DNA of 64,000 nt from Acidimicrobiia bacterium (GTDB lineage Bacteria > Actinomycetota > Acidimicrobiia > Spongiisociales > ZC4RG35): positions 258,302 to 322,301 of the forward strand of contig OZ242375.1 of assembly GCA_965209025.1 (NCBI GenBank), given 5' to 3'. The position numbers were made by a program, and so were the translations under genes. Below, piece after piece: positions 27,476 through 63,965 of this stretch. The stretch's first letter is position 1, and each line of letters opens with the position of its first letter. Under the pieces are notes generated by a model, which saw only the letters and a list, made by a program, of their open reading frames with translations, made no database searches and was not told the DNA's origin.

Positions 27476-27568
27476 GGCATTCTTCCTTGTCATCCGTTTA
27501 TCCGCAATGGATGAATCTTGGGCTCTACCTTCCCATGGGGTTCGAGGAGGCCGAAGGATGGCGGTGTG

Positions 27569-29939: not shown

Positions 29940-29968
29940 CTTCTTTGTCCTTTCGTTCTCCCCTGGTG

Positions 29969-32900
29969 TTATGGTGTGTTGTCTGATTGGTAGAGTGCTT
30001 TGAGGGCGACGATGTCCATCGGTTGTGGTGCACATATGCGATTCGTTGTAGGGGCGGTGTCAGTTTTCTTTCTCATGATGCTTTCGTTGGGGTTTGTCGT
30101 GGCGTGTCCCAGACCCCAGATGTGACCCGCTTCGTGAGTGGCAACTTCGAGGCGCAGAGAGCAGTTGTTTCCTCCTGCCCATGTGGCATCCGTGGGTCCT
30201 TTCACGAAAAACATGGCGTATTTGGTGTATCCGCTTACATTGGGATCGAACGGCGGTACGACAGCTAATGCTGTGTCCGAGAGTTTCGGGTAGTACACCT
30301 TTACCTGTGTGCTGGTTTGGAGTGAGACTCTTCTGGTGTCTTCTTCAAGGCAGTTGTCGCCGGATTCTTGGGTGATTACGGATGAGCTGATGTTTCGGCC
30401 GTCTGGTGTGGTGAAGCCTTGCATGGCTGTGGTCCATTTGGTGAATCCTTGTTTGATTTCGTTGATCCATGTTTGGGTCATATCTTTTGTGCATATTTTG
30501 TAGGCGTAGTGGAGGGGTGACAGATCGTGACGGTAGGGTATCCCGGCTACGCTAAACCCGCCGCTGGTTGATGGTTCCTCCGCAGTTGTAAAAACGAGAA
30601 TGGTTTCGCTGGACCAGGGCGATTGGTCTGCTGCGTTGCCGGATCGCACTTGGACGGCGTAAAGGCGGCTGATCCGCAGCCCGGTGATCGCATAAGATGT
30701 GCTGGTGATCTTGTCGGATACCGGGGTCCAGGTGCCGCTGCAGGTCGGGGGATCGGCGCACGTTTTGTATCGGACCTTGTAGTACTCGGCGGTGGTGGCC
30801 GGAGCGTCGGTGGTGGACACGGGGTTCCATGTCATCTTGATCTGGGCTTCGTCGGGTCGTAGATGAACGTGTGCGGTTGGGCTGTGTCCGTTGGCGCGTA
30901 GTCCTGTGGGCGTGGGTGGAGCGCCTGTGACTGTCCAGGTGGTGACGGGTTCGGACCATTGGGATTGGTGGTGTTGGTAGCCGGTGGTGGTGTCGTTGGC
31001 GCGGATGTGGATCCGGTAGTTTCGGCCGATGGTGAGGGTGCTGTGGGTTCCGGTGTTTTTGACTATTTTGACCGTGAACACTCCTTGGGAGTCGGGTGCG
31101 ATTTCCAGTTGGTTTGTGCCGGTGCAGTCGTTCCCGGTGCCGTCTCCTACGCAGTAGGCCTGTTGGGTGGTTACCGTGTCGGGGCAGTCGCTGCCTGTTT
31201 CGACGCAGTATGTGATGTCGTAGCCTTGTGCGTGGGCTACTTGGTTCCATTTGATGTTCAACGCGGGGGTTTGTGGGTGGGCCAGGTTGAACCCGTCGGC
31301 GACTACTCCGGTGGGTTTTGCCAGTAGTAGGGATGTTTCGATGGTGTGGGATCCGAGGTTGGTGGTGGTGGTGCTGGTGCGGCTGATCTCGATCCGGTAG
31401 TCAACGGATCCGGTGGTGAGCCCGGGTGGGTTCCATTCGACGAGGTTGCCGTGCACGGTGGAGGTTTGGGAGGCAAGGTCGGTGGTGGTTCCGACGGTTC
31501 CTGCTGTTATTTCTGCCCAGGTGAGGACGAACGGCACGCTTGAGGAGACCTCGAGTTTGATCTTGTCGGGTGTTACGTCTCTAAGGGTGTATCGCTTGGC
31601 GTAGACGGTTTCGGTGGTGCTGGTGCGATGGACGGCCTTGCAGTCGGTGGTCCAGTCGTGTCTGGTGGTTGTTTGTGGCAGGTCCGTGGTGCAGGCGTCT
31701 GTGGAGGGCGGAACAGTGGTCGTAGTAGTAGTGGTGGTGGTGGTCGTAGTGGTGGTGGTGGTGGAGCGGGTGGTTTGTTTGGTGACGGTTCGTTCGCAGG
31801 TGGGCGGGTTGGTGGTTTTGTTCAGGGTGTATTCGGTTGGGCAGGACCAAACGGGATCGATTGTGGTCGGTCGGGTGGTTTGTTTGGTTACGGTCCTTTT
31901 GCAGGTGGGTGGATCGGTGGTTTCGTCCAAGGTGTAGCCGGTTCCGCAGGACCATTGGGTTTCGGTTGTGGTCGGTTGGGTGGTTTCTCGGGTTACTGGG
32001 CGGGAGCAGGTGGGCGAGAGCCCGGATTCGCCTTCCACACCACCTCCGCTGGCTCCTGATTGGGGACCGATGCCTTTTTGGTATCCGGGCGGGCAGGAAT
32101 AGGTTGTTTGGATGGTGGCGTTGCGCGTGGTTTCTCGGGTGATTGTGCGGGAGCAGGTGGGTGAGAGACCCGATTCACCCTCGACGCCGCCGCTGTTGCC
32201 GGTGGGTCCTGTTTGGCCGCCGATGCCTTTTTGGTATCCGGGGGGACAGGAGAAGGTGGTTTGGGTGGTGGCGTTGCGCGTGGTTTCTCGGGTGATTGTG
32301 CGGGAGCACGTGGGCGAGAGCCCGGATTCGCCTTGGGCGCCACCGTCGCCGCTGCTGCCGGTGGGTCCTGTTTGGCTGCCGAGGCCTTTTTGGTATCCGG
32401 GGGGACAGGTCCAGTCTGTCCGTGATGAAGCGTTGCGGGTGGTGTCGCGAGTGATGGTGCGGGAGCAGGTGGGTGAGAGCCCGGATTCGCCTTCCACGCC
32501 GCCGTCGTCGTTGTTGTTTCCGCTGCTGCCGCCGGCTTGTGATTGGCCGCCGAGGCCTTTTTGGTATCCGTCGGGGCAGGTGAAAGTTGTCCGGATTGAA
32601 GCGGTAAGAGTGGTGGAACCCGACCGCCTGTAAGAACAGATGGACTCGTTTCGGCTGCTGTACGAGTAAGTGGCCGGTGCCGACGGGCACGAATACGATG
32701 TGGTGGCGGTGCGGGTGGTGCTGGTCGACCGCGTGTAAGTACAAGTAGTTCCGCTGCGGCTGCTGTACGTATAGGTGGCCGGCGCCGACGGGCACGAATA
32801 CGATGTGGTGGCGGTGCGGGTGGTGCTGGTCGACCGCGTGTAAGTACAAGTAGTTCCGCTGCGGCTGCTGTACGAATAGGTGGAAGGCGCCGACGGGCAG

Positions 32901-34471
32901 GAGTAGAGGGTGGTGGCGGTGCGGGTGGTGCTGGTCGATCGGGTGTAGGTGCAGGTGGTGCCGCTGCGGCTGCTGTACGAATAGGTGGAAGGCGCCGACG
33001 GGCACGAATATGACGTTCGGGCGGTGCGGGTGGTGGAACCCGACCGCGTGTAATAACACGTCGACCCGACCCGATGACTATACGAAAACGTAGAAGGAGC
33101 ACCGGGGCAGTTATACCCCGCAGTGGGGTGTGCCACAGCCCTGCGGGTAGTGGTCGTGGATCGGGTGTACGTACAGGTGGTGCCGTTTCGGCTGCTGTAG
33201 GAGTAGGTAGATGGCGCCGACGGGCACGAATATGAGGTGGTGGCGGTGCGGGTGGTGGAACCCGACCGCGTGTAATAACAGGTGGAACCACTCCTCCTGC
33301 TATAGGTGAAGGTCCCCAACGAACCGGGACACGAATACGACGTGTTAGCGGTGCGGGTAGTGGAACTCGACCGCGTGTACGTACAAGTGGACCCGCTCCG
33401 GCTGCTGTACGAATACGTAGAAGGAGCAGAGGGGCACGAGTAGGAGGTGTTGGCGGTGCGGGTGGTGGACCCCGACCTCGTGTACGTGCAAGTGGACCCG
33501 CTTCGGCTGCTGTACGAGAACGTGGAAGGCGCAGAAGGGCACGAATACGATGTGGTGGCGGTGCGGGTGGTGCTGGTCGACCGGGTGTAAGTGCAGGTTC
33601 TGCCGCTCCTGCTGCTGTAGGTGTAGGTGGCGGGCGCAGCCGGACACGTGTACACCGTCGTCCCGGTGGCGTCGATCGTCTCGGTGTCCTCATACGTGTA
33701 ATGACAGACAGACCCGTCTCGTCGGACGAACGCCAATCCGTCCTCGGTCGGACACGTGTACACCGTCGTTCCGGTGGCGTCGATCGTCTCGGTGTCCTCG
33801 TAGGTGTAGTGACAGACAGACCCGTCTCGTCGGACGAACGTCAGTCCGTCCTCGGTGGGACAGGTGTACACGGTGGTGCCGGTGGCGTCGATCGTTTCGG
33901 TGTCCTCGTAGGTGTAGTGGCAGACAGACCCGTCCCGCCGAACAAATGTCAGGGTGGCTTCGGTCGGACACGAGTAGGTCGTGGTTCCGGTGGCGTCGAT
34001 GGTTTCTGTGTCCTCGTAGGTGTAGTGGCAGACAGACCCGTCTCGTCGGACGAACGTGTACCCCGCAGGCGACGGACACTCCTCAACGGTCGACGAAGTC
34101 GCTGCTGTGCTTTCGACGCTCTCGTAGGTGTAATGACACGTTGACCCGTCCTTCCGGACCAGCGTGTACCCCGCAGGCGACGGGCACACCTCTTCGGTCG
34201 TGCCCGTGTCAGTAGCAGGTACGCTCTCAACCTCCTCGTAGGTGTAATGACACGTCGAACCGTCCCGCCGGACAAACGTCAGCCCCTCCGGCATCGGGCA
34301 GGCACCGTTGGAACCAGCCTCCAAACTGACCCACCCATTGTCCTCCAGTCCCATCCCGCCGACCGCCAACGGCACAACCGACAACAAAGCCCCCAACGCC
34401 ACAACGGCCACCAGTCCCGACCTTCCCCTCCTCGACCTTCCCCCCCTCGCTCTCCGGTAGGGACTGGCCAT
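29969..34471 (-). CDS. Giant secreted multi-repeat protein (1500 aa) with C-terminal metzincin-type zinc metalloprotease domain
   Basis: ATG 34471 is preceded by AGGAGG with a 5-nt spacer. Arg-rich signal peptide. Three families of Cys-containing tandem repeats, a run of about 17 Thr, beta-rich modules, and HEAGHIWGLGH (encoded at 30104-30136, minus strand) followed by a SIM Met-turn. Confidence 0.85.
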   Translation of the reverse strand: MASPYRRARGGRSRRGRSGLVAVVALGALLSVVPLAVGGMGLEDNGWVSLEAGSNGACPMPEGLTFVRRDGSTCHYTYEEVESVPATDTGTTEEVCPSPAGYTLVRKDGSTCHYTYESVESTAATSSTVEECPSPAGYTFVRRDGSVCHYTYEDTETIDATGTTTYSCPTEATLTFVRRDGSVCHYTYEDTETIDATGTTVYTCPTEDGLTFVRRDGSVCHYTYEDTETIDATGTTVYTCPTEDGLAFVRRDGSVCHYTYEDTETIDATGTTVYTCPAAPATYTYSSRSGRTCTYTRSTSTTRTATTSYSCPSAPSTFSYSSRSGSTCTYTRSGSTTRTANTSYSCPSAPSTYSYSSRSGSTCTYTRSSSTTRTANTSYSCPGSLGTFTYSRRSGSTCYYTRSGSTTRTATTSYSCPSAPSTYSYSSRNGTTCTYTRSTTTTRRAVAHPTAGYNCPGAPSTFSYSHRVGSTCYYTRSGSTTRTARTSYSCPSAPSTYSYSSRSGTTCTYTRSTSTTRTATTLYSCPSAPSTYSYSSRSGTTCTYTRSTSTTRTATTSYSCPSAPATYTYSSRSGTTCTYTRSTSTTRTATTSYSCPSAPATYSYSSRNESICSYRRSGSTTLTASIRTTFTCPDGYQKGLGGQSQAGGSSGNNNDDGGVEGESGLSPTCSRTITRDTTRNASSRTDWTCPPGYQKGLGSQTGPTGSSGDGGAQGESGLSPTCSRTITRETTRNATTQTTFSCPPGYQKGIGGQTGPTGNSGGVEGESGLSPTCSRTITRETTRNATIQTTYSCPPGYQKGIGPQSGASGGGVEGESGLSPTCSRPVTRETTQPTTTETQWSCGTGYTLDETTDPPTCKRTVTKQTTRPTTIDPVWSCPTEYTLNKTTNPPTCERTVTKQTTRSTTTTTTTTTTTTTTTTVPPSTDACTTDLPQTTTRHDWTTDCKAVHRTSTTETVYAKRYTLRDVTPDKIKLEVSSSVPFVLTWAEITAGTVGTTTDLASQTSTVHGNLVEWNPPGLTTGSVDYRIEISRTSTTTTNLGSHTIETSLLLAKPTGVVADGFNLAHPQTPALNIKWNQVAHAQGYDITYCVETGSDCPDTVTTQQAYCVGDGTGNDCTGTNQLEIAPDSQGVFTVKIVKNTGTHSTLTIGRNYRIHIRANDTTTGYQHHQSQWSEPVTTWTVTGAPPTPTGLRANGHSPTAHVHLRPDEAQIKMTWNPVSTTDAPATTAEYYKVRYKTCADPPTCSGTWTPVSDKITSTSYAITGLRISRLYAVQVRSGNAADQSPWSSETILVFTTAEEPSTSGGFSVAGIPYRHDLSPLHYAYKICTKDMTQTWINEIKQGFTKWTTAMQGFTTPDGRNISSSVITQESGDNCLEEDTRRVSLQTSTQVKVYYPKLSDTALAVVPPFDPNVSGYTKYAMFFVKGPTDATWAGGNNCSLRLEVATHEAGHIWGLGHATTNPNESIMRKKTDTAPTTNRICAPQPMDIVALKALYQSDNTP
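31990..32600. repeat. Intragenic tandem repeat family C (about 156 nt / 52 aa, 4 copies)
   Basis: Protein unit: CPPGYQKGIGGQTGPTGNSGGVEGESGLSPTCSRTITRETTRNATIQTTYS. DNA copies are more than 90% identical. Confidence 0.75.
32600..33640. repeat. Intragenic tandem repeat family B (about 105 nt / 35 aa, roughly 10 copies)
   Basis: Protein unit: SYSCPSAPSTYSYSSRSGTTCTYTRSTSTTRTATT. Near-identical DNA copies (the ggtggcggtgcgggtggtgctggtcgaccgcgtgtaagtacaagtagttcc block recurs). Confidence 0.8.
33640..34300. repeat. Intragenic tandem repeat family A (about 108 nt / 36 aa, roughly 8 copies)
   Basis: Protein unit: CPTEDGLTFVRRDGSVCHYTYEDTETIDATGTTVYT. Several copies are nucleotide-identical. Confidence 0.8.
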
Positions 34472-46537: not shown

Positions 46538-48190
46538 TCAGTCCAGGAGGTCCTCGTCCAGCTTGGCGAACAGCGGCCGGGGCGCTTCCAGGACGGCCGG
46601 GACCAACGGGGACCTGGTCCAGCCTCCATCCGCCACCGATCCCGGCTGTCCGAGCATCTCATGGAGCCTGTCTGAGGAAAAGGCCAGGTAGGGAGCGAAG
46701 GCCGTCTTCAGCCCGTTGATGGCCGAGAGGGCGGTGTGAAGCACCGTCTCGGCCCGGCGGGGGTCCTCTCTGCGCAATAGCCATGGGGCCTGGGCGTTGA
46801 GGTAGATGTTGACTGCCTGGGCGCCCTCCATCGCCTGGCGCAGGCCCGCTCGTAACTCCACCTTCTCCAGCATCTTGCCGGTTTGGGTCAGCCCTGCGTC
46901 GACCTTGGCCAGGAGAGCCACATCGTCGGTAGCCGGGGATTGGCCCTCCGGCGTCCTCCCCCCGTACCAGGAATAAGCCATGGAGAGCACCCTGTGCACG
47001 AGGTTGCCCCAGGTGGCCACCAACTCGTCGTTGACCCTCCGGATCAACTCGGCGTCGGAGAAGTCGGTGTCGTTCTGTTCGGGGAGCACCGATCCCAACG
47101 CGTACCGGAGGGCGTCGGGTTGGATGCGGTCGGCGTACCAGCCTATCGAGCGGCCCACTCCCCGGCTGCTGGAGGCCTTTTCCTGGCGGAAGGTCACGTA
47201 CTGGTTGGCGGGTACATCGGTTGGAAGGTTGAGCCCTCCGTATCCCATCAGCATGGCCGGCCAGATGACCGCGTGAAAGGGGATGTTGTCTTTTCCGATG
47301 AAGTAGTAGGACTCGGCGTCCGGGTCCTCCCACCAGCGCTTCCACTCGTCCGGGGTTCCCCGAATCTGTGCCCACTCCTTGGCAGCCGACAGATAGCCGA
47401 TCACCGCGTCGAACCACACGTAGATGCGCTTTTGGTCTCCCAGCCGGTCGGCGGGCGGGGGGAGGGGCACTCCCCAGGAGAGATCACGGGTTATGGCCCG
47501 CTGGGGTAGCCCTTCGTTCACCATGCCCATCGCCCAGTTCTTCACGTGGCGCCGCCATCCCTGTCTGGTGGTCAGCCACTCGGCCAGCCGGTCCCCGAAG
47601 GCGTCCAGGCGCAGGAAGTAGTGCCTGGTCTCCCGGGTTACCGGCGTGGCGTTCGACATCTTGCTGCGGGGATCGATCAACTCGATGGCGTCCAGGGTGC
47701 GGCCGCAGTCGTCACACTGGTCTCCCCGGGCGTCGCGGTAGCCGCAGTTCGGGCAGGTCCCCTCCACGTAGCGGTCGGGAAGGAACCGCTCCGCCTGCGG
47801 ATCGTACAACTGGATGGAGGCCCCTTCGGTTATGTAGCCCTTCTCCAGGAGGCGGGAGAAGACGTCCTGGGTCACGGCGAAGTGATTGGGGGTGCCGGTG
47901 GAGGTGTACAGATCCCAGGAAATGCCCAGCTTCTCCCAATCGGCGACGAACTCGGCGTGATAGCGGTCCACGATCGCCTGGGGCTCCACCCCCTCCTGGT
48001 CGGCGAGCACGGTGATGGGTGTCCCGTGGACATCGCTGCCCGAAACCATCAGCACCCGGTTGCCCGCCAGGCGGTGGTAGCGGGCAAAGATGTCAGCGGG
48101 CAGGTAGGCCCCGGCCAGGTGCCCCAGGTGGCGGGAGCCTGCTGCATAGGGCCACGCCACCGCAACCAGTATGTGACGTGAGGAGTTCAC
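46538..48190 (-). CDS. metG: Methionyl-tRNA synthetase
   Basis: Class I HLGH (AGSRHLGHLAG), zinc knuckle CPNCGY...CDDCG, and KMSNAT(P) = KMSKS. Confidence 0.92.
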   Translation of the reverse strand: MNSSRHILVAVAWPYAAGSRHLGHLAGAYLPADIFARYHRLAGNRVLMVSGSDVHGTPITVLADQEGVEPQAIVDRYHAEFVADWEKLGISWDLYTSTGTPNHFAVTQDVFSRLLEKGYITEGASIQLYDPQAERFLPDRYVEGTCPNCGYRDARGDQCDDCGRTLDAIELIDPRSKMSNATPVTRETRHYFLRLDAFGDRLAEWLTTRQGWRRHVKNWAMGMVNEGLPQRAITRDLSWGVPLPPPADRLGDQKRIYVWFDAVIGYLSAAKEWAQIRGTPDEWKRWWEDPDAESYYFIGKDNIPFHAVIWPAMLMGYGGLNLPTDVPANQYVTFRQEKASSSRGVGRSIGWYADRIQPDALRYALGSVLPEQNDTDFSDAELIRRVNDELVATWGNLVHRVLSMAYSWYGGRTPEGQSPATDDVALLAKVDAGLTQTGKMLEKVELRAGLRQAMEGAQAVNIYLNAQAPWLLRREDPRRAETVLHTALSAINGLKTAFAPYLAFSSDRLHEMLGQPGSVADGGWTRSPLVPAVLEAPRPLFAKLDEDLLD

Positions 48191-49206
48191 GGGTGATCGC
48201 GAAGTTTACCCGCGGCGGGAGGACCGGCGGATGCCGCCCGTCGCCGGTCGTCCTCTCGGTCGGGGCGGTCGCTGACCACGATTCCAATGGCCACCGCCGT
48301 CATTCCCACCACCAGTTGGAGGGTGACCGGCTCCGACAGCAGGACCACTCCCAGAGTGACTCCCAAGAGAGGCGAGAAGTACCCGGTGAGGGATGCCCGG
48401 GCGGCGGTGGTGATGCGGCAGGCCCACATGAAAGCGGCGAAAGAGATGGTGGTGGGAACCACTCCCATATATACGATCAGCCACAGCCCGGTGGCGTCGA
48501 TGGTGAGATACCCCTGGTACCCGTCGAAGGGAATCGACAACAGAGAGAGGATTACCGCCGAGGTCAGGTACTGGGAGACGATCAGGGGGGCGTTCCGGTG
48601 CCGGACCGCGTAACGACGGGTCAACGCGCCGCCCAGCCCTGCCGACAGGGCGCCTCCGGTCATCAGGACTATCCCCAGAATCCATCGGGAGGAGGGCTGT
48701 CCCACCGGCGCCCATCCCATCACGGCGATACCCCCGACGGCCATGGCCAGGCCCGGTAGGCGGGCGATCCTGAAGGTCTCTCCCGGTACCACCCAGTGGG
48801 TCAGGAGGATGGTGGTCAGGGGGATGATCGCCACGATCACCGCCCCGATGCTGGCCGGTATCACCAGGAACCCCAATGTGAACAGGATGGTGGGAATAGT
48901 CATGTTGAACACCCCGATGGCTGCCCCGGCCACCAGCGTTGCCCGGTCCATTCTGAGATTGCGCCTGGTCAGTGCCAGAGTGCTGATGATCGCCGCTGTT
49001 CCGATTGCCTGTTTGAGCGGAAAGATGGTGAATGGGCTGACCCCGAGGAGGAGAATCGCTCGGTTGGCGGCCGGCGCGCTTCCCCAGGCCAGGGAGGCGA
49101 TCATGATGGGAATCCACGGGTTGTGGGTGACTGCGAGCCAGCGCCCGCTCTCCCCGGACGCGGCCCCGCCCAGCCCGTTACGGATGGGGGTCTTGTGGCC
49201 GAACAT
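48187..49206 (-). CDS. DMT/EamA-family transporter (copy 1)
   Basis: 10-TM profile with two EamA halves. Overlaps the metG start. Confidence 0.8.
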   Translation of the reverse strand: MFGHKTPIRNGLGGAASGESGRWLAVTHNPWIPIMIASLAWGSAPAANRAILLLGVSPFTIFPLKQAIGTAAIISTLALTRRNLRMDRATLVAGAAIGVFNMTIPTILFTLGFLVIPASIGAVIVAIIPLTTILLTHWVVPGETFRIARLPGLAMAVGGIAVMGWAPVGQPSSRWILGIVLMTGGALSAGLGGALTRRYAVRHRNAPLIVSQYLTSAVILSLLSIPFDGYQGYLTIDATGLWLIVYMGVVPTTISFAAFMWACRITTAARASLTGYFSPLLGVTLGVVLLSEPVTLQLVVGMTAVAIGIVVSDRPDREDDRRRAASAGPPAAGKLRDHP

Positions 49207-49373
49207 GATTGGCGGTCTCTCCAGATCTGGATTTGGGGCGGCTGGGGTGGTGTGATTCCCTCAGGTGGCTTGTCGGGTTGGAGAGACCCACGGGCGAGAA
49301 AGAGGCGGGGGGCGAGAATGGACACTCTCGCTCCCGCTCCTCCAGCCCTTCGGGGTGACCCTCCCGGATGACT

Positions 49374-50372
49374 TTAGCAACGCGGAGCTGTCCGGGCTGC
49401 GGCTCTCCTTCGGTCGTCCTCTCGGTCTGGACGGTCGCTGAACACGACGCCTACCGCCACCGCCACCACTCCCACGATCAGCTGCAGCGTGACCGGTTCC
49501 GACAGGAGCGCCACTCCCCCCATGGCTCCCAACACCGGCACCAGGTAACCGATCAGGGCGGCCCGGGCGGCGGTGGCGATACGGGAAGCCCACATGAAGG
49601 CCGCGAAGGAGATCACGGTGGGCACCGCCGCCATATAGACGATCAGCCACAGGCTGGCCGCGTCGATGGTCAGGTATCCGGCGTAGCCGTCGAAGGGTAT
49701 CGAGATCAACGAGAGGAGCACCGCCGAGGTGATGAACTGGACGACGATCAAAGAGCGGTTCTGGTAGCGGACCGCGAATCGACGGGTGAAGGCTCCTCCC
49801 AACCCGGCGCAGGCCGCTCCGAGAGTGGTCAGGACCACGCCCAGGACCCATCGGGAGGAGGGTTGGCCGACCGGCGCCCATCCCATGATCGCCACCCCGA
49901 ACATCCCCATCAGAAGGCCTGGCAGCCTGCCTGCCCGGAAGCGTTCTCCGGGCACGACCCAGTGGCTGAAGACAATGGTGGTGAGGGGGATGATGCCCAC
50001 GATCACGGCCCCGATGCTGGCCGGGATTGTTTCGAACCCCAATGTGAACAAGATGGTGGGCACTGTCATGTTGAAGATGCCGATCACGATTCCCGCTTTG
50101 AGCGTGGCAGGGTCGATCCTGGGCAGGCGTCCCACCAGGGCCAGGGCGGAGATCACCATCAGGGCCCCTCCGGCTTGTTTGAGAGGGAAGATGGTGAAGG
50201 GACTCACACCGTTCAACAGAACCGCCTTGGTGGCGGCCGGCGCGCTTCCCCAGGTCAGCGAGGCGATGGCGATCGGTATCCAGGGATTGTGGGTGATACC
50301 ATGCCACCGGGTTCCGGCGCCTGTCCCATAGGCGGGACGCTTTCCTACAATCGGGGCTTCATGGCTGAACAT
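49374..50372 (-). CDS. DMT/EamA-family transporter (copy 2, tandem paralog)
   Basis: About 70-75% identical to copy 1 over its full length. Confidence 0.8.
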   Translation of the reverse strand: MFSHEAPIVGKRPAYGTGAGTRWHGITHNPWIPIAIASLTWGSAPAATKAVLLNGVSPFTIFPLKQAGGALMVISALALVGRLPRIDPATLKAGIVIGIFNMTVPTILFTLGFETIPASIGAVIVGIIPLTTIVFSHWVVPGERFRAGRLPGLLMGMFGVAIMGWAPVGQPSSRWVLGVVLTTLGAACAGLGGAFTRRFAVRYQNRSLIVVQFITSAVLLSLISIPFDGYAGYLTIDAASLWLIVYMAAVPTVISFAAFMWASRIATAARAALIGYLVPVLGAMGGVALLSEPVTLQLIVGVVAVAVGVVFSDRPDREDDRRRAAARTAPRC

Positions 50373-51320
50373 GCGGTGACTATTGCTCCGGGTCGAGCGG
50401 GCGCGGGATTGTCAGAGCGAGAACTCCGGTCTCTTGTGAGATCGGCCCCGCCGACCGACGAGGTGATGGTGGAGGAGCGGGTTGCGGCTCTCGCCACTCG
50501 TTCGATCAAGCGGGAAGCCAAGATGTGGGCCCTGCGGGCCGCCATATCCATGACCGACTTGACCACCCTCGAGGGGATGGACACCAAAGAAAAGGTAAGA
50601 CAACTCTGCCACAAGGCTATCAGGCCGGACCCTACCGACGCCTCCATTCCCTCGGTGGCGGCGGTGTGCGTGTACCCCAACCTGGTGGGGACCGCGGCGG
50701 AGGTTCTGGGGGGCAGTCCGGTCAAGGTGGCGGCGGTCTCCACATATTTTCCCTCGGGGCAGGCCCCACTCGACTTGAAGGTCGCCGAGACTGGGCGGGT
50801 GGTCGCCGACGGGGCGGACGAGGTGGACATGGTGATCGACCGCGGGGCTTTTCTTGCCGGGGACTATGTGAAGGTCTTCGCCGAGGTGGCGGCTGTCCGG
50901 GAAGCGGCGGGGGATGCATGCCTGAAGGTGATACTGGAGACCGGAGAGCTTGGGTCCTATGACAACGTTCGAAGAGCCTCGATGCTGGCCATGGCGGCCG
51001 GCGCCGACTTCATCAAGACCTCCACCGGCAAGGTCTCCCCGGCCGCCACCCCGGCTGTGACCCTAGTGATGCTGGAGTCGATCAGGGACTTTCATCGCAA
51101 CACCGGAAGGGCGGTGGGGATGAAACCCGCCGGGGGGATTGGCTCTGCCAAACAGGCCATCAGGTGGCTCGTGCTGCTCAACGAGACCCTGGGTGTGGAG
51201 TGGATGACTCCCCGACTCTTCCGTTTCGGGGCCTCAAGCCTGCTCAACGACCTGCTGATGCAAATCAGGTGGTTGGAGACGGAGAGGTATCAATCCCCTG
51301 ACTACTTCACCAAGGCCTGA
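50361..51320 (+). CDS. deoC: Deoxyribose-phosphate aldolase (long form)
   Basis: Schiff-base Lys region (ADFIKTSTGK), VCVYP and ADEVDMVI motifs. The ATG at 50361 overlaps the divergent EamA start by 12 nt, so the true start is uncertain. The ORF-track frame from 49368 is an over-extension. Confidence 0.78.
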   Translation: MAEHAVTIAPGRAGAGLSERELRSLVRSAPPTDEVMVEERVAALATRSIKREAKMWALRAAISMTDLTTLEGMDTKEKVRQLCHKAIRPDPTDASIPSVAAVCVYPNLVGTAAEVLGGSPVKVAAVSTYFPSGQAPLDLKVAETGRVVADGADEVDMVIDRGAFLAGDYVKVFAEVAAVREAAGDACLKVILETGELGSYDNVRRASMLAMAAGADFIKTSTGKVSPAATPAVTLVMLESIRDFHRNTGRAVGMKPAGGIGSAKQAIRWLVLLNETLGVEWMTPRLFRFGASSLLNDLLMQIRWLETERYQSPDYFTKA

Positions 51321-53651: not shown

Positions 53652-53744
53652 CAGTCTCCACAGCGACCGGCGGGGCCGCCGGCAGGGAGAGGGCGCCGAG
53701 AATGGAGCCTCTTTTCGTTTACATTCCGTTAAGAAAGGGGGTAT

Positions 53745-53760
53745 CATCTCCAGCGTTCAT
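53745..53760. promoter_or_regulatory. Perfect inverted repeat GTTCA-N6-TGAAC, 47 nt upstream of the liv substrate-binding protein gene
   Basis: Reads gcGTTCAttgaagTGAACaa, inside an AT-rich leader. Confidence 0.3.
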
Positions 53761-53806
53761 TGAAGTGAACAACTTACAGAATTCCTTCGGAACAGAGGAG
53801 AGAAAC

Positions 53807-56377
53807 ATGCTCCGCTTACCAACAACTACAAGGGCTAGGGGACTGCTCAAGTTCCTGGTCGTGCTCTCTTGCGCAGCGCTTGTCCTTTCGGCTTGCGGCG
53901 ACGACGAGACCGAAGAACCGACCGCCACCGCGGCTCCGACCACTGCCGCCCCGGATGAACCTACGGAGGAGATGCCCATGATGGACCATCTCGGAGATGG
54001 TTCGTTGGGTGTTGTGGAGGTGGAGCCGGGTGAGGCTGTCCAGATCCGTTCGTTGAACGCGATCACGGGTGATGTGGCCTTCTTCGGCCTGCCGATCGAG
54101 CGGTCCGTGGTTTTGGCGATCGCCGACTACGGGCAGATTCATGGTTTTGATGTGGATATGGGTACCGGCTTGGATGACCTGTGTTCCAATGATGGGGGTC
54201 AGGCTGCGGCTCAGATCATCGTTGCCGACGAGGATGTGATCGGTGTGATCGGGACTTCGTGTTCCGGGGCGGCCACGGCTGCGGCGCCGTTGATCACCGA
54301 TGCTGGGATGGTGCTGATCTCGGGTGGTAACACCTCGCCTGCGCTTACTTCGGACCTGGCTGGTACGGCTGGAGCGAACTACAGCTACGGGTATTACCGG
54401 ACGGCTCATAACGACCTGTTCCAGGGTCGGGTGATGGCTGAGTTCGTGTTCAACGAACTGGGCATCTCCACTGCGGCTGCTATTCACGACGGAGACCCCT
54501 ATACGCAGGGTTTGGCGAAGGCTTTCACCGATGCGTTTGACGCGTTGGGTGGTGATGTGACCGGTTTCTCGGCTGTGAACAAGGAGGACACCGACATGGT
54601 GCCGGTGCTCACCGAGATCGCGGCGGGGAGTCCCGGGGCATTGTTCTTCCCGATCTTCCAGCCCGCCGGCGACTTCGTAGCCGAACAGGCCCCCGGTGTC
54701 TCCGGCTTGGAGAACACGGTGCTGTTGGCGGCTGATGGTTTGTTGAATACCTCGTATCTGGCTTTGTCGCAGACCGAGGGGATGTACTTCTCGGGTCCGG
54801 ACACCCGGTTCGGTCAGAACGTCAACGCCAGCACCGGTAAGACGGCCCAGGATTTCCTGGCTGCCTACGAAGGGGATTACGGCGAGGCGCCTGCCGCGCC
54901 TTTCTGGGCTCACGGCTATGACGCCACCACCTTGCTGCTCGACGCCATCACCGCCGCCTCCTACGTTTCCGAGGACGGCTCGTTGATGGTTGACCGCCAG
55001 GGAGTCCGCGAGTATCTCGACAACGTAAGGGACTACCAGGGTCTGATCGGCTTGATCAGTTGCGATGACTTCGGTGACTGCGGTTCGCAGTTGATCACCG
55101 TGGTCTACCACCAGAGCGCCGACAATCCGGAAGCCACCATGGGCAATGTCGTCTACTCCGGAGGCGGAAGCGGAGAGGGGACGATGGAGCCCCTCGGCGA
55201 CGGTTCTTTGGGCACCGTTACCGTGGAGCCCGGTGAGGCTGTCCAAATCCGTTCGCTGAACGCGATCACCGGTGATGTGGCCTTCTTCGGCCTGCCGATC
55301 GAGCGGTCCGTGGTGCTGGCCATCTCCGACTACGGGCAGATCCACGGTTTCGATGTCGATATGGGTACCGGCTTGGATGACCTGTGTTCCAATGATGGGG
55401 GTCAGGCTGCTGCTCAGATCATCGTTGCCGATGAGGATGTGATCGGTGTGATCGGGACTTCGTGCTCGGGTGCGGCCACGGCTGCGGCGCCGTTGATCAC
55501 CGATGCGGGTATGGTGCTGATCTCGGGTGGTAACACCTCGCCTGCGTTGACTTCGGACCTGGCCGGGACGGCGGGAGCGAACTACAGCTACGGCTATTAC
55601 CGGACGGCTCATAACGATCTGTTCCAGGGTCGGGTGATGGCGGAGTTCGTCTTCAACGAACTGGGTATCTCCTCTGCGGCTGCCATTCATGACGGCGATC
55701 CTTATACGCAGGGTCTGGCGAAGGCTTTCACCGATGCGTTCGACGCGTTGGGTGGTGATGTGACTGGTTTCTCGGCTGTGAACAAGGAGGACACCGACAT
55801 GGTGCCGGTCCTCACCGAGATCGCGGCGGGGAGTCCGGGTGCGTTGTTCTTCCCGATCTTCCAGCCCGCCGGCGACTTCATCGCTGAGCAGGCGCCAGGG
55901 GTTTCGGGCTTGGAGAGCACGGTGCTGTTGGCGGCTGATGGTTTGCTGAACACCTCGTATCTGGCTTTGTCGCAGACTGAAGGCATGTACTTCTCGGGTC
56001 CGGACACGCGGTTCGGCGAGAATGTCAACGCCAGTACCGGGAAGTCGGCCCAGGATTTCCTGGCTGCTTACGAGCGCGACTACGGTGAACCGCCTGCGGC
56101 GCCTTTCTGGGCGCATGGCTATGACGCCACCACGATGCTGCTGGACGCCATCGCCGCGGCTTCGCACCTCGCTGACGACGGTTCCTTGATAGTCGACCGG
56201 CAGGGAGTGCGTGCTTTCTTGGACGGCGTCCGCAACTATCAGGGTCTGATCGGGCTGATCAGCTGTGATGACTTCGGTGACTGCGGTTCGCAGTTGATCA
56301 CCGTGGTCCACCACCAGAGCGCCGACAACCCGGAGGCGAGCATGGGCAATGTCGTCTACTCCGGCGGAGGCAACTGA
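53807..56377 (+). CDS. Branched-chain amino-acid ABC transporter substrate-binding lipoprotein, tandem double-domain (two LivJ/LivK-like modules fused in frame)
   Basis: ATG 53807 with GGAGAG SD. Lipobox LSAC. Two type-I periplasmic-binding-protein modules, each about 390 aa, with DNA more than 90% identical by eye, joined by an SGEGT linker. Confidence 0.8.
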   Translation: MLRLPTTTRARGLLKFLVVLSCAALVLSACGDDETEEPTATAAPTTAAPDEPTEEMPMMDHLGDGSLGVVEVEPGEAVQIRSLNAITGDVAFFGLPIERSVVLAIADYGQIHGFDVDMGTGLDDLCSNDGGQAAAQIIVADEDVIGVIGTSCSGAATAAAPLITDAGMVLISGGNTSPALTSDLAGTAGANYSYGYYRTAHNDLFQGRVMAEFVFNELGISTAAAIHDGDPYTQGLAKAFTDAFDALGGDVTGFSAVNKEDTDMVPVLTEIAAGSPGALFFPIFQPAGDFVAEQAPGVSGLENTVLLAADGLLNTSYLALSQTEGMYFSGPDTRFGQNVNASTGKTAQDFLAAYEGDYGEAPAAPFWAHGYDATTLLLDAITAASYVSEDGSLMVDRQGVREYLDNVRDYQGLIGLISCDDFGDCGSQLITVVYHQSADNPEATMGNVVYSGGGSGEGTMEPLGDGSLGTVTVEPGEAVQIRSLNAITGDVAFFGLPIERSVVLAISDYGQIHGFDVDMGTGLDDLCSNDGGQAAAQIIVADEDVIGVIGTSCSGAATAAAPLITDAGMVLISGGNTSPALTSDLAGTAGANYSYGYYRTAHNDLFQGRVMAEFVFNELGISSAAAIHDGDPYTQGLAKAFTDAFDALGGDVTGFSAVNKEDTDMVPVLTEIAAGSPGALFFPIFQPAGDFIAEQAPGVSGLESTVLLAADGLLNTSYLALSQTEGMYFSGPDTRFGENVNASTGKSAQDFLAAYERDYGEPPAAPFWAHGYDATTMLLDAIAAASHLADDGSLIVDRQGVRAFLDGVRNYQGLIGLISCDDFGDCGSQLITVVHHQSADNPEASMGNVVYSGGGN
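53990..56370. repeat. About 1.18-kb in-frame tandem direct duplication (copy A about 53990-55170, copy B about 55190-56370)
   Basis: Long runs of identical sequence between the two halves of the SBP gene. Confidence 0.75.
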
Positions 56378-56467: not shown

Positions 56468-57576
56468 ATGGCGAGCGCGAGCATGTGGGTTCCCAGAACC
56501 AAGGTCGACTGGTTTCTGACGGTCCTGCGAGTCCTCGCTCTTACCGTGGTCACCGTGGGCCTGCTGGCGTTCATCGCCCAGCAGATAAATGTCGACAACC
56601 CCTTTGCCCGGGTAGTGAATCCCGACGCCACGGGTCTCACCGGTCCCCAGTTCCGGGGTTTGGTGATCTCGGGGTTTGCGCAGGGGGCAATGTACGGGTT
56701 GATCGCCCTGGGCTATTCGATGGTCTACGGTGTGCTCGGGTTTATCAACTTCGCGCACGGGGAGGTGTTCATGGTCGGGGCCATGACCGGGATGATCACC
56801 TCCAACAAATTGGACGACGCGGGCCTGTGGGAGACCAACTTCATCGGGTCGCTGCTCTTCATCGTGGCAGTGTCCATGTTGGTCTGCACCCTGACCGCGG
56901 TGATCATGGAGAGGGTTGCTTACCGACCCCTCAGAAAGGCGCCCCGCCTTATCCCGCTGATCACCTCGATCGGCATCTCCTTCTTCATCCAGAACACGTC
57001 GGTGGTGCTGTTGGGCCCGACCAGCAAGGCATACCCCGACATGCCCGATTGGCTCACCGCCAAGCGCACTTTCCTGGAGATCGAAGGCACCAAGATCATG
57101 GTGATTTGCGTGGCGGCGGTGGCGATGCTGGGTCTGTGGCTCCTAGTCGAGCGCACCAAGACCGGCAAGGCGATGCGAGCCGTCGCCGAGGACCAGGAGA
57201 TCGCCGGGCTCATGGGCGTGGACGTCAACCGCACCATCGTAAAGGTCTTCGCGGTAGGCGGCGCCATGGCCGGGGTGGCCGGCATCCTGTGGGGGGTCCT
57301 GTTCCGGAGCGTCATCCACTACACGGGATTCCTGCCCGGAATCAAGGCCTTCAGTTCGGCGGTGGTGGGGGGCATCGGCAACCTGGGAGGCTCCATGGCC
57401 GGCGGACTGTTCATCGGCCTGGCCGAGTCGACCGGGCCCCTGCTGATCCTGGAACCGCTGGGCGTCAGCGGGGTGTCGCAACTGCGGGACGCGGTCGCCT
57501 TCGCCATGCTGATCGGCGTCTTGCTCCTCAAACCCAGCGGCCTGTTCGGCGAACGCCTGTCGGCTGAGGACCGGGC

Positions 57577-57580
<4 letters not shown>
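56468..57580 (+). CDS. livH: Branched-chain amino-acid ABC transporter permease LivH
   Basis: AAGGAG SD. LivH-type TM topology, including a GL..G..MG.MIT-like segment. Confidence 0.85.
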
Positions 57581-59390
<1,810 letters not shown>

Positions 59391-59394
<4 letters not shown>

Positions 59395-60179
59395 ACGGAA
59401 CACCTCTTCTCGACATCCGCAACCTGACTGTGGAGTTTGGAGGCCTTCGCGCCCTGGACGGAGTCGACATCCAGGTGAACGAGGGAGAGATAGTCTCGGT
59501 CATCGGTCCGAACGGGGCGGGAAAGACCACCCTCTTCAACGCCATAACCGCCTCGGTGGAAGCCAACGGGGAGATCCTCTTCGAGGGGGAGACCCTGCTG
59601 GGTCTCGATCCCAACCAGGTGACCTCCAGGGGCGTGGCCCGGACGTTTCAGAACGTCCGCCTCTTCGCCAACATGACGGTGCTCGAGAACGTGATGGTCT
59701 CCCAGCACTGCCGGACCAAGCAGGGCACGTTCGGCGCGCTCTTTTACACGAAGGCCTTCCGGCAGGAGGAGGCCGAGATCCGCGCCCGGGCGGAGAAGAT
59801 CCTCGGCTTCTTCGGGACCCGCCTGGTGGGGTTCCGGCTTGACCAACCCGCCGCGGTGCTCTCCTATGCCAACCGTCGCCGGCTGGAGATCGCCCGGGCC
59901 ATGGCCACCCAGCCCAAGCTGTTGTTGCTCGACGAGCCGGTGGCGGGAATGAACCCGGTCGAGTCGGCCGAACTCACCGGTCTGATCGGTCGCCTTCGGG
60001 AGGAGTGGGGCTTCACGATCGTGGTCATAGAACACGATATGGAGGTTGTGCGGGAGGTGTCCGATCGGGTGATCGTTCTCGACCACGGCGTCATGATCGC
60101 CGACGGGGACTACGAGGAGGTCTCGTCCGATCCTCGCGTTATAGAGGCTTATCTGGGTCACGGGGCCACGACCAAATGA
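59391..60179 (+). CDS. livG: ABC transporter ATP-binding protein LivG
   Basis: Walker A GPNGAGKTT, ABC signature LSYANRRRLEIARA, Walker B LLLLDEP. Confidence 0.9.
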
Positions 60180-60907
60180 CAGACTCCAAGCCCCTGTTGG
60201 AGATGCGTTCGGTCAATGCCCACTACGGCGCCGTCCATGCCTTGAAAGACGTGGACCTGGCCATTTACGAGGGCGAGCTGGTGTGCCTGCTGGGCGGAAA
60301 CGCCAGCGGGAAATCCACCACCCTCAAGACATTGCTCGGCATGCTGATCCCCACCTCGGGCGACGTCCTCCTGGACGGCGAAGTGGTGACCGACCGCCCG
60401 ATCAGCTACCGGGTACGCAAGGGCGTGACCATGGTTCCGGAGAACCGACGCCTGTTCAAGCGCCTGAGCGTGAGGGACAACCTGGAACTGGGCGCCTACC
60501 TGCGGAAGGACACCGGACAGATCGCAGCCGACATGGAGCGGGTCTTCGAGTTGTTCCCCCGCGTCAAGGAACGCCTGACTCAGAAGGCGGGCACGCTGTC
60601 GGGGGGAGAACAGCAGATGGTGGCCATAGGCCGGGCGCTCATGGCGGGACCTCGGGTCCTGTTGATGGATGAGCCTTCCATGGGTCTGGCGCCGGCACTG
60701 GTGCAGCAGAATTTCGAGTTGATCCAGCAGATTCACGAAGCGGGCATGACGGTGTTCATGGTGGAACAGAACGCCAACATGGCTCTCTCCATCGCCGACC
60801 GCGGCTGGGTGCTGCAGACCGGGCGCGTGGTGTTGGACGACTCGGCCCAGAACCTGCTGGCCCATCCTGACCTGCGCACCTCCTACCTGGGTGGTGGAGA
60901 CTCCTGA
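60176..60907 (+). CDS. livF: ABC transporter ATP-binding protein LivF
   Basis: ATG 60176 overlaps the livG stop. Walker A GGNASGKST, signature LSGGEQQMVAIGRA, Walker B LLMDEP. Confidence 0.9.
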   Translation: MTDSKPLLEMRSVNAHYGAVHALKDVDLAIYEGELVCLLGGNASGKSTTLKTLLGMLIPTSGDVLLDGEVVTDRPISYRVRKGVTMVPENRRLFKRLSVRDNLELGAYLRKDTGQIAADMERVFELFPRVKERLTQKAGTLSGGEQQMVAIGRALMAGPRVLLMDEPSMGLAPALVQQNFELIQQIHEAGMTVFMVEQNANMALSIADRGWVLQTGRVVLDDSAQNLLAHPDLRTSYLGGGDS

Positions 60908-61882: not shown

Positions 61883-63202
61883 TCAGGAGGCCCCGGCGAC
61901 GAAGGCGTGGATCAATTCCCCGACTCTCTCCGGATCCGTCAGGGCAGCGTGGTTGGTGTGGGGTACCACCTCGAGCGAGACGTGGTGGCCGCCCGCCAGC
62001 AAGGCCTCGGCAAAGCGTTGGGAGTGGAGAGGGAATATCAACTCGTCTTCATCACCCGTGACCAGCAGGAAGGAGCGCTCCGGATACCGGTCGGCCAAGG
62101 TGAGGGGGTTGAGTTCTCTCCACTCCACGGCTTGGTCCGGGGAGGCGCCGGTCAACAGGTAGAGGAACAGTTGCATGGCCATCAGGTCTCCCTGCTCGAG
62201 CAGGGATGCGAGGTTGGGTAGCTCTCCGACGAGGGCTTCGGCATCGAAGAAGTAGTCGGGGACGCCACCGTTCCACAGATCATCGAGGTCATATGGTCCA
62301 CCCAGCCCGATCATGCCCGCGATCTCACCAGAGGCATGGGGGCATCGTGGTGGAAGAGAGCGGTCGGTGAGGGTGGCAAGCGCGGCTAGGTGGGCTCCCG
62401 ACGAGTAGCCCAGCAGCCAGACCGGAGGGGCAGGCAGGGTCAAATGGTCCGCCGCCAGGTGCGGGGCGGCCGCCGCCAGGCAGGCCACCTCGCCTGCCAT
62501 GGAAGAGAGGCGGCGGAGCCGCAGCAGGGTTCGGTGTTCTCCGTTAATCGCCACCACCCCCCGGGAGGCGAGGTAGTGGGACAATTCCGAGAGTTGGGTG
62601 CGGTCACCGATGCTCCAGCCTCTTCCGAAGGTGAGGGTGATGACCGGGTAATTGCCCGGCTGGGTGGGAGCGTGAACGTCGGCGTACAGGCCGGGCATGA
62701 ACTCCACGGTGGAGACCGAGACTTCGTGGAAGGTTGGGGTGCTGACAGTCTCGGGTTCGGGAGCATGGGTGGTGGTCGTGGTTGTAGCGGCGGGGAGGGT
62801 GGTTGTGGTGGTGGTCGGATCGGGGGCAGTAGTAGTTGTGGTGGTGGCGGGGAGAGTTGTGGTGGGAGCAGTTGTCGTGGTGGGGGCTGTTGTGGTAGTA
62901 GTGGCCGGGAGAGTTGTGGTGGTGGTGGTGAGCGGGGGAGACGTGGAGGTCGTGGTCGCTCTCGTAGTCGCCGGTACGGCGGTGGTGGTTGTAGCGAGAG
63001 TGTTGTCCGGGGCGGCGGGGGAGGTGGGGCTGGAGGATGGAGGGGGAGAGGGTGGGTCCGGAGGAGTGATCGTCGTGGCTGAGGTGATCGAGGTGCTCGG
63101 GGCGGGTGGATCGGCGGGGGTCAGTGTGTCCTCCGATCCGGTGACGCATGCTCCCAGGAGCAACGGGGCCATTACCACCCAAGCCGTCAGTTTTCTCGGC
63201 AT
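61883..63202 (-). CDS. Alpha/beta-hydrolase lipoprotein with about 130-aa Thr/Pro-rich linker
   Basis: Start at ATG 63202 (MPRKLTAWVVMAPLLLGACV lipobox). Nucleophile elbow GYSSG, C-terminal His. The ORF-track start at 63466 is an over-extension. Confidence 0.7.
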   Translation of the reverse strand: MPRKLTAWVVMAPLLLGACVTGSEDTLTPADPPAPSTSITSATTITPPDPPSPPPSSSPTSPAAPDNTLATTTTAVPATTRATTTSTSPPLTTTTTTLPATTTTTAPTTTTAPTTTLPATTTTTTAPDPTTTTTTLPAATTTTTTHAPEPETVSTPTFHEVSVSTVEFMPGLYADVHAPTQPGNYPVITLTFGRGWSIGDRTQLSELSHYLASRGVVAINGEHRTLLRLRRLSSMAGEVACLAAAAPHLAADHLTLPAPPVWLLGYSSGAHLAALATLTDRSLPPRCPHASGEIAGMIGLGGPYDLDDLWNGGVPDYFFDAEALVGELPNLASLLEQGDLMAMQLFLYLLTGASPDQAVEWRELNPLTLADRYPERSFLLVTGDEDELIFPLHSQRFAEALLAGGHHVSLEVVPHTNHAALTDPERVGELIHAFVAGAS

Positions 63203-63278
63203 TTGTCCGGAGCGTAGAACTGTTCGGGAGCAATGTTGCCAGGCTATTCGTGAGGGTTCCCCCGGTAGTCTTGGATGG

Positions 63279-63965
63279 ATGGAGTTGGCCGCCGTCCGGG
63301 TGAAGTGGGCTCCGGGAAAGTGGACCACCCTGTGGCCGGCGGGTGATCCGGCTTCGAGGCACACCCTGATTCTGGCCCACGGCGCCGGGGCCGGCGCCGG
63401 CCACCCCTTGGTGACCGGACTCCGGGACCAACTGGTTGCAGCCGGAGCGTTTTGCGTCACCTTCAATTACCCGTATACCGAGGAGGGTCGCCGCCGTCCC
63501 GATCGGATCGACCGGCTATTGGCCTGCCACCGCGCGGTCGCCGACTGGGTTAGGGGCGAGGTGTGCGAGGCGCCGGTTTTGGCGGGCCGCTCCATGGGCG
63601 GCCGTATGGGTACTTACCTGGCTGCCGACGGCGATCCGGTCCGGGCCTTGGTGCTCTACGCCTATCCCCTCCATCTGCCCCGCCGACCCGACCGGCTCCG
63701 TTCCGAGCACCTGATCCGCATTTCGGTTCCCATGCTGTTCTTCCGGGGTAGTCGGGACGCCTTTGCCACTCCCGAACTGTTTGATCGGGAGGTGAGGCCT
63801 CTCAGAACGGCTACGGTGGTCGATCTGGAAGGGCTGGACCACTCGTTTCGCGGTCGGGGCCACCGGGCCGACGAAGTGAATCAGCGCCTGGCCGAGATGA
63901 CCGTCTCCTGGCTGGAGACTCTCGGTCCGAACGGCTTTGGAAAAAGCGCCCGGTCCGGGGCATAA
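63279..63965 (+). CDS. Alpha/beta-fold hydrolase (dienelactone hydrolase / KANL3-Tex30-like), about 228 aa
   Basis: HGAGAGAGHP oxyanion region, nucleophile elbow GRSMGG, C-terminal His (GLDHSF). Start uncertain (ATG 63279). Confidence 0.62.
   Translation: MELAAVRVKWAPGKWTTLWPAGDPASRHTLILAHGAGAGAGHPLVTGLRDQLVAAGAFCVTFNYPYTEEGRRRPDRIDRLLACHRAVADWVRGEVCEAPVLAGRSMGGRMGTYLAADGDPVRALVLYAYPLHLPRRPDRLRSEHLIRISVPMLFFRGSRDAFATPELFDREVRPLRTATVVDLEGLDHSFRGRGHRADEVNQRLAEMTVSWLETLGPNGFGKSARSGA

Follow-up and report, generated by a model that had tools for sequence, protein, structure and literature searches.

Studies of tandem substrate-binding domains (SBDs) have dealt almost exclusively with GlnPQ of Lactococcus lactis and other Gram-positives, an importer in which two domains that differ from each other, SBD1 and SBD2, follow one another and compete for docking (PMC8025302). 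Here we describe a different arrangement in a 64,000-nt stretch of DNA from an Acidimicrobiia bacterium (contig OZ242375.1, positions 258,302 to 322,301 of the forward strand; hereafter the window), where the first gene of a liv operon encodes a substrate-binding protein (SBP) of 856 aa, a lipoprotein with two LivJ-type modules. Like GlnPQ, this protein unites two complete SBDs within a single chain; a short, flexible linker connects them, and they are kept at the membrane beside the translocator. Unlike GlnPQ, whose SBDs are fused to the permease GlnP and differ in specificity and affinity, it is a separate, lipid-anchored protein, and its modules are 94% identical and appear from the alignment to have the same mapped contact residues. 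By Pfam both modules are of type I (Peripla_BP_6, LivJ-like) and not of the SBP_bac_3 class (PBP type II), to which the SBDs of GlnPQ belong.

Comparison with E. coli LivJ and LivK and with the solved proteins 3td9 and 4n0q revealed the same fold (TM-score 0.86 per module, relative to the target), the same disulfide pair and, as far as the alignment suggests, most of the alpha-amino-acid contact positions, and the E. coli proteins also have the operon partners livH, livM, livG and livF. Those proteins are single-module and soluble in the periplasm, whereas the window SBP is a two-module lipoprotein with ~22-24% identity to them; it also differs from the E. coli system in the replacement of Y202 by F and of E226 by D, and the window LivM has a long N-terminal extension. 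The literature searched, from which subscription journals were outside coverage, yielded work on GlnPQ and OpuA and on the genomics of sponge Actinobacteriota, and no description of LivJ-type homo-tandems or of their homogenisation was found in it.

Concerted evolution by gene conversion is known from tufA/tufB and from the rRNA operons. Homogenisation of repeats inside one gene is known in spidroins (PMC3933166). As in those systems, copies within one genome are closer to each other than to their orthologues, mosaic tracts occur and synonymous sites are homogenised; unlike those systems, the partners here are two whole 396-aa ligand-binding domains in one reading frame of a transporter component, and their number varies from 1 to 3. 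We consider it quite probable that the window encodes a functional two-module LivJ-type lipoprotein which arose by an old duplication and evolves in concert through conversion and unequal recombination, and this would be a clean bacterial case of whole-domain concerted evolution within one reading frame.

The gene and its two modules

The SBP gene (53807-56377, + strand) encodes 856 aa counted from ATG 53807 and lies in a + strand reading frame that, in the open reading frame (ORF) listing, is uninterrupted over 53702-56377. The earlier in-frame ATG at 53702 would yield 891 aa; the closest homologues have 855-861 aa. The frame stops at 56375-56377, and livH begins as an ORF of its own at 56468. 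The intergenic stretch 53652-53806, which contains AGAGGAGAG, is poorer in GC than the window as a whole (54% vs 64%). The gene is divided as follows, confidence in the structure model being given as the predicted local distance difference test (pLDDT).

53794-53802 (+): ribosome-binding site AGAGGAGAG, read from the sequence, 6 nt 5′ of ATG 53807
53807-53896 (+): lipoprotein signal peptide with lipobox L-S-A-C, Cys30 being the predicted lipidated residue, by inspection
53897-53980 (+): Pro/Thr/Glu/Ala-rich disordered tether from the lipid anchor to module A (pLDDT 30-37 for residues 30-59; composition from the translation)
53981-55168 (+): module A (N-half), complete LivJ-type Peripla_BP_6 module of 396 aa (repeat comparison, Pfam, structure model)
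54089-54904 (+): interior of module A, unit nt 109-924, pairing with 55292-56107 of module B
54905-55102 (+): older 3′ segment of module A, unit nt 925-1122, pairing with 56108-56305 of module B
55169-55183 (+): linker SGEGT, the duplication junction (pLDDT <50 for residues 454-464)
55184-56371 (+): module B (C-half), complete LivJ-type module of 396 aa (repeat comparison, Pfam, structure model)

The N-terminus of the SBP, MLRLPTTTRARGLLKFLVVLSCAALVLSAC, includes the lipobox LSAC with Cys30, which is invariant among 73 homologues. By inspection, RARGLLKFLVVLSCAALVLSAC consists of a positively charged n-region, a hydrophobic core and the lipobox Cys, as expected of a bacterial lipoprotein, and the AlphaFold2 (AF2) model places a helix at residues 9-27 of the signal peptide region. 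Peripla_BP_6 (PF13458) matched two stretches of the protein at 208 bits against a cut-off of 31.7, and the Pfam matches were limited to this family and ANF_receptor. Module A (MDHLGDGSLG...VVYSGGG) and module B (MEPLGDGSLG...VVYSGGG) each measure 1188 nt or 396 aa, and the repeat offset is exactly 1203 nt, with the frame kept and zero indels between the modules. A preliminary description of this DNA had read it as the 856-aa first gene of a liv operon with two complete type-I modules behind a lipoprotein signal and a Pro/Thr/Glu linker. The ORF, repeat and Pfam analyses, together with the LSAC motif, Cys30 and the Pro/Thr/Glu-rich tether, bear this out, and the codon-level comparison recovered the same module ends and SGEGT joint. 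Its segment length of about 1.18 kb also holds (1188 nt each), but the identity of more than 90% does not, the value across the whole unit being 88.7%.

The similarity of the two modules is far beyond chance. They differ at 134 of 1188 nt (88.7% identity) and at 25 residues (93.7% aa identity), and the local nt identity is ~90-97% for the greater part of unit nt 1-900 but falls to 57-80% near unit nt 950-1080. By codon position the 134 differences are distributed as 25/8/101, with 101 at the third, and the pair gives 0.037 substitutions per nonsynonymous site (dN) and 0.468 per synonymous site (dS), a dN/dS of 0.078. Each half is also separately constrained between species (dN/dS 0.03-0.06), and both modules are under purifying selection. 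When the unit was divided, dS was 0.37 in the interior and 0.89 in the 3′ segment, where 35 differences fall inside one 132-nt interval; dN was 0.10 in the 3′ segment vs 0.015 in the interior, with a 3′-segment dN/dS of 0.12. On the scale of whole loci, the window is 94.9% identical at the nt level to its nearest relative, locus L011, over 17.5 kb, 86-88% identical to L001 and L002 and ~80% identical to L005. The two halves have thus diverged like the genomes of separate species, and mostly synonymously, which argues that the duplication is not very recent. Copies made by a very recent event would have a dS close to zero, and an expansion during assembly would leave them identical or with errors scattered at random.

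The AF2 model contains two confident modules (pLDDT ~90), with disorder in the tether (residues 30-59) and in the linker (residues 454-464), and its predicted TM-score (pTM) of 0.51 implies no fixed orientation between the modules; the model is consistent with two independent modules on flexible linkers. In Foldseek the modules matched 3td9, 4n0q and 4gnr with a TM-score of 0.84-0.87 relative to the target and E-values of ~1e-20 to 1e-22, in keeping with the two-lobed fold of type I periplasmic binding proteins, and since each match covered one module only, no LivJ-type tandem has been solved among them. The nearest solved proteins (3td9, 4n0q, LivJ and LivK) are Leu/Ile/Val binders. In the E. 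coli leucine-binding protein (LBP), S79, T102, Y150, Y202 and E226 are ligand contacts in the LBP/LIVBP structures. The equivalents of LBP C53/C78, S79, T102, Y150, Y202 (F) and E226 (D) are the same in both halves of the window SBP, and S79, T102 and Y150 are conserved relative to E. coli LBP in an alignment at ~23% identity. Judged by these positions, both modules appear to bind the same ligand, which is probably a hydrophobic or branched-chain amino acid.

Concerted evolution of the two modules

In nearly all homologues that are 60-96% identical to the window SBP, the halves within a protein share 84-100% identity, and in P0075-P0091 the halves are 98-99% identical to each other and only ~64% identical to the window protein. 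With few exceptions, halves of the same protein are more alike than either is to the matching half from other clades. In a neighbour-joining (NJ) tree of the halves, those of each major clade cluster whatever their position, and within the clades same-protein sister halves are mixed with N-with-N and C-with-C groupings, indicating that homogenisation took place at different times.

Counted per 1188 nt, the within-gene differences are 134 in the window, 135 in L011, 119 in L005, 94 in L002, 44 in L003, 14 in L001 and 1 in L004, and the between-genome differences are 66-277, or 130-277 once the window-L011 pair (66-86) is set aside. Across 24 species-level loci the within-gene dS is 0.000-0.47 vs 0.17-1.07 to the nearest other species, and the window and L011 have the most diverged module pairs of all; few pairs have gone longer than that of the window without homogenisation.

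Identical tracts of 1090-1187 nt were present in L001, L004, L014, L019 and L026, and discrete tracts with sharp edges inside the repeat unit were observed in L001, L003, L005, L014 and L019. The halves of L026 have zero differences and those of L004 have 1 in 1188 nt; L001 carries a 1124-nt identical tract with its 14 differences all at the two unit ends, L003 carries a 737-nt identical tract, and L005 is a mosaic of identical blocks alternating with divergent ones. At diagnostic sites the N-half of L001 is C-type from nt 30 to ~1152, indicating C-to-N conversion, and both halves of L003 are mostly N-type, indicating N-to-C conversion. What is expected of gene conversion was therefore found: copies within a genome closer than orthologues, at synonymous sites too, with tracts and with transfer in both directions. 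On these sequence patterns we regard conversion as demonstrated within clades, and the high similarity of modules A and B appears to reflect repeated homogenisation and not youth.

The history of the window's own pair was followed in quartet site patterns, in which the window was set against further species that have two modules at this locus. In the comparison with L002, orthology (N with N, C with C) is supported at 30 sites, against 54 concerted sites, at which the two halves of a genome agree with each other and differ from both halves of the other genome; 25 of the 30 lie in unit nt 1-108 and 973-1188, and the concerted sites fill the interior. With L005 the corresponding counts are 17 and 79. 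The position of the N/C orthology sites at the unit ends indicates that the duplication predates the splits from L002 and L005. The interior N-vs-C dS of 0.37 is lower than the window-L002 orthologue dS of 0.59-0.72, which argues that the interior was converted later in the window lineage, and the 3′-segment N-vs-C dS of 0.89 is similar to the window-L005 value. Compared with the dS of 0.47 between the copies, orthologue dS is 0.24-0.34 for window-L011 and 0.56-0.67 for window-L002. The N- or C-specific divergence of the 3′ segment is common to the window, L011, L002 and L005, and the linker SGEGT is common to the window, L001, L002, L005, L011 and the proteins P0001 and P0004. The duplication accordingly seems older than the species splits within this clade (clade 1). 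Along the window pair itself, third-position differences are unevenly distributed (chi-square P 0.006).

The sequence of events that we propose would be as follows. The lipid-anchored two-module SBP would serve the adjacent LivHMGF-type importer of a sponge-associated Acidimicrobiia bacterium; its doubling would be older than the separation from four or more other species-level lineages. The architecture itself is present across a family-level radiation. Gene conversion would overwrite stretches of either copy, in both directions, and unequal recombination would occasionally shift the module number to 1, 2 or 3. In the window, the last homogenisation of the ~800-nt interior would have followed the separation from the L002 and L005 lineages, and the first ~100 nt and the ~200-nt 3′ segment would have escaped homogenisation, keeping older N/C-specific differences.

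Module number, origins and rival explanations

The homologue search returned 734 matches, and the architecture was judged on the best 120. Among these, ~97 proteins of 829-885 aa have two modules, at identities between 96% and 43% (~95 homologues with this architecture down to 60% identity), and the others are one three-module protein (P0092, 1215 aa), one truncated protein (P0064) and 21 proteins in which a single module matches. Scanning genomes yielded 80 loci, nearly every one of them in metagenome-assembled genomes (MAGs) of sponge-associated Acidimicrobiia; the lineages are Candidatus Spongiisociaceae, Poriferisodalis, Aldehydirespirator and unnamed lineages, and L030 is binned as Latescibacterota. 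Many of the 80 loci lie on multi-megabase chromosomes, and complete long-read chromosomes (e.g. OZ242000.1, OZ241390.1 and OZ220692.1) carry the two-module gene with 0-119 inter-module differences. The comparison with orthologous liv operons, which the preliminary description had proposed as a check, turned up a two-module gene at the syntenic loci L001, L002, L005 and L011. Single-module relatives are represented by L031 and L049 (long-read assemblies), L028 (short-read MAG) and the Poriferisodalis clade.

Module number is dynamic (1, 2 or 3) among the relatives. P0092 is a three-module fusion from a lineage ~40% identical to the window SBP, with 94% identity between its first and second modules. 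Some loci instead carry unfused SBP genes in tandem, every one with a separate lipobox: two in L016 (7983-10496) and three in L027 (7986-11866). The series of one, two or three near-identical LivJ-type modules, or of two unfused genes, provides a ready comparison for the effect of an additional tethered site on uptake kinetics in a symbiont that scavenges nutrients.

Short-read assemblers collapse or break the 1.2-kb repeat, so that module counts for this family in short-read MAGs are unreliable. The whole contig of L030 (JAAXHH010000134.1) is 1203 bp, one repeat period, and is 96% identical to a window module; it is almost certainly a mis-binned short-read repeat contig in a 'Latescibacterota' MAG. 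The 456-aa single-module members P0276 and P0279, which sit in the 90% cluster of the window protein, may likewise be repeat collapses. The single-module genes of L028, L031 and L030 are compatible with N-5′/C-3′ chimeras, which a deletion through unequal crossover would leave, although any single gene necessarily carries those end contexts.

The proteins with a single matching module, P0098-P0113 and P0115-P0120 (most are 809-858 aa long, and P0116 is a partial sequence of 636 aa), are lipoproteins and represent hetero-fusions, encoded at L033-L040, L042, L044, L050, L051, L055, L058, L060, L061 and L072. Their N-terminal module is 77-81% identical to that of the window, their C-terminal domain of ~360 aa is without a Pfam match, and their genes are without livHMGF downstream. 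This C-terminal domain (VVQTDWFPESEHGAMYHL...) presumably resembles NMT1/SsuA-type binding proteins, and these lipoproteins may be hetero-tandem binding proteins. An exhaustive single-module search gave 8322 relatives; among the best 150 cluster representatives, P0123, P0130, P0150, P0151, P0162 and P0226 show two matched stretches, and long fusions are frequent. The fusion of SBDs thus recurs in other families and is not unique by itself.

In a tree of LivH+G+F (unbootstrapped, midpoint-rooted NJ), two-module operons are found on the deepest branches and in most clades, and single-module operons are nested among them, with one large all-single clade in addition. We also considered linker homology as evidence for a single origin of all clades, but the linkers are unrelated between clades and do not support it.

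Several observations weigh against an old duplication kept alike by conversion and used for a branched-chain ligand. The linkers are conserved within clades and unrelated between them (SGEGT; GTTGAAEDA; LGSxAEAGSIPPIELETP), and across clades 1-4 the only shared N/C signature column is position 3 (H/P), in clades 1 and 2; from the differing linkers and this single column, some clades may have duplicated independently. On the LivH+G+F tree ~5 losses and ~5 gains are about equally parsimonious. Single-module relatives exist and are apparently viable, so that two modules are not essential (L031, L049, the Poriferisodalis clade). The longest identical run in the window pair is not significant (permutation P 0.23), and because this own-pair tract signal is modest, the case for conversion in the window lineage rests on the quartet and dS comparisons. 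With regard to the ligand, Y202 and E226 of E. coli LBP are replaced by F and D, and related folds bind aromatic acids or urea.

The next explanation to be weighed is recurrent independent duplication (birth and death) of a single-module gene in many lineages, which we consider unlikely. It would account for the clade-specific linkers, for the finding that no interior N/C signature is shared between clades, and for the occurrence of single, double, triple and unfused forms, with singles and doubles interleaved on the transporter tree. In clade 1, however, the junction and end sites are orthologous while the interiors were homogenised separately, and the sub-unit tracts (L001, L003) and mosaic blocks (L005) are signatures of conversion. 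Functional in-frame fusions arising again and again at the same domain boundary would, moreover, be mechanistically far less probable than recombination between 1.2-kb repeats that already exist.

Alternatively, the modules could be sub-functionalised and have begun to differ in ligand or role, one docking and the other capturing, for instance; the divergent 3′ segment (aa 309-374, with 12-14 substitutions) would then mark the functional difference. The tandem SBDs of GlnPQ do differ in specificity (PMC8025302). The retention of the N/C-specific segment in the window, L011, L002 and L005 and its higher dN (0.10 vs 0.015) agree with this, but the dN/dS of the segment is still only 0.12 and the mapped ligand-contact positions are the same in both halves. 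In addition, relatives with fully or almost fully homogenised modules persist (L004, L026, L019, L001 and L014), which indicates that the N/C asymmetry is dispensable. We give sub-functionalisation a slim chance, and a divergence in specificity, which the preliminary description had envisaged, is not indicated.

The same description had proposed a very recent tandem duplication, with too little time for the halves to diverge, and such an event is very improbable. Although the halves are 93.7% identical in aa and free of indels, their 134 differences and dS of 0.47 are comparable to between-species values, the junction and the end-specific N/C differences are common to L011, L002 and L005, and one recent event could not have produced so mosaic a divergence (dS 0.37 for the interior and 0.89 for the 3′ segment). 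An assembly artefact, that is, a single-module gene expanded or two strain alleles joined in tandem, is hardly credible, although short-read assemblies do mishandle the repeat (the 1203-bp L030 and perhaps the single-module L028 and the 456-aa cluster members): the errors seen are collapses and not expansions, the copies are non-identical, with 134 differing sites in a codon pattern and an in-frame linker conserved in other species, the exact window SBP protein sits on a 2.6-Mb contig, and several independent, complete long-read chromosomes carry the same two-module gene.

Predicted function, operon and neighbourhood

For the two-module lipoprotein evolving in concert, the likeliest function, by analogy with the tethered SBDs of GlnPQ (PMC8025302), would be to present two equivalent sites per lipid anchor and so to raise the local amount of loaded SBD at LivHM. 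The tandem would probably raise the capture or delivery rate, in line with the greater capture capacity suggested in the preliminary description, rather than broaden specificity. Direct 1.2-kb repeats should delete readily and single-module relatives appear viable, yet doubles persist in many lineages, which would suggest a benefit. It is doubtful that selection, beyond passive recombination, keeps the modules identical because the importer uses a matched pair. If this were true, the SBDs might alternate or hand over substrate at LivHM with its extended LivM, a stoichiometric mechanism that would be undescribed for SBPs of the type I fold, and sponge symbionts might tune uptake capacity via recombinational module number.

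Downstream of the SBP gene, the importer is encoded as follows.

56468-57580 (+): livH-type permease (BPD_transp_2), by Pfam; syntenic in related loci
57577-59394 (+): livM-type permease of 605 aa, by Pfam, with BPD_transp_2 at residues 276-553
59391-60179 (+): livG-type ATPase (ABC_tran and BCA_ABC_TP_C), by Pfam
60170-60907 (+): livF-type ATPase, its start set by aligning homologues; the open frame reaches back to 60005

The SBP is thus encoded beside two BPD_transp_2 permeases and two ABC ATPases, one of them with BCA_ABC_TP_C, as in importers of the hydrophobic amino acid uptake transporter (HAAT) family, and Pfam identified two aldehyde dehydrogenase (Ald) genes upstream. The SBP-livHMGF synteny is conserved in >50 loci. 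The order Ald-Ald-SBP-livHMGF-helix-hairpin-helix (HhH) glycosylase is common to the window, L001, L002, L005, L011 and L028, and it includes a two-module SBP (Ald-Ald-SBPx2-livHMGF-HhH) in L001, L002, L005 and L011. LivM carries a hydrophobic N-terminal extension of ~275 aa before its BPD_transp_2 domain. The idea that this extension is a docking adaptation for the double SBP was rejected, as it is equally present in operons with a single-module SBP.

Other repeats were found elsewhere in the window. Four tandem paralogous ORFs of 367, 417, 418 and 422 aa lie at 24859-30035 (- strand), with patches of 62-97% nt identity; they had no Pfam match whatsoever and represent another locally amplified gene family. 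A 1500-aa ORF at 29969-34471 (- strand) consists largely of 105/108-nt (35-36 aa) tandem repeats of several sub-families; Pfam gave a single weak signal for it, Matrixin-like and below threshold, at the C-terminus (E 7e-4), and the ORF may encode a repeat protein that is secreted or exposed at the surface. At 48187-50307, a direct repeat of 77% identity and 1166-nt spacing leads from an EamA-family gene (48187-49206, - strand) to the neighbouring region, where a - strand ORF (49261-50307, no Pfam match) overlaps a + strand 650-aa DeoC-like ORF (49368-51320). Finally, a Thr/Pro-rich low-complexity tract (TTTT/PPS repeats) was observed at 62600-63100 within the - strand ORF 61883-63466, a predicted esterase/peptidase-like lipoprotein (BD-FAE / Peptidase_S9 matches). 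Its resemblance to the SBP tether suggests that such linkers may be common in the exported proteins of this organism.

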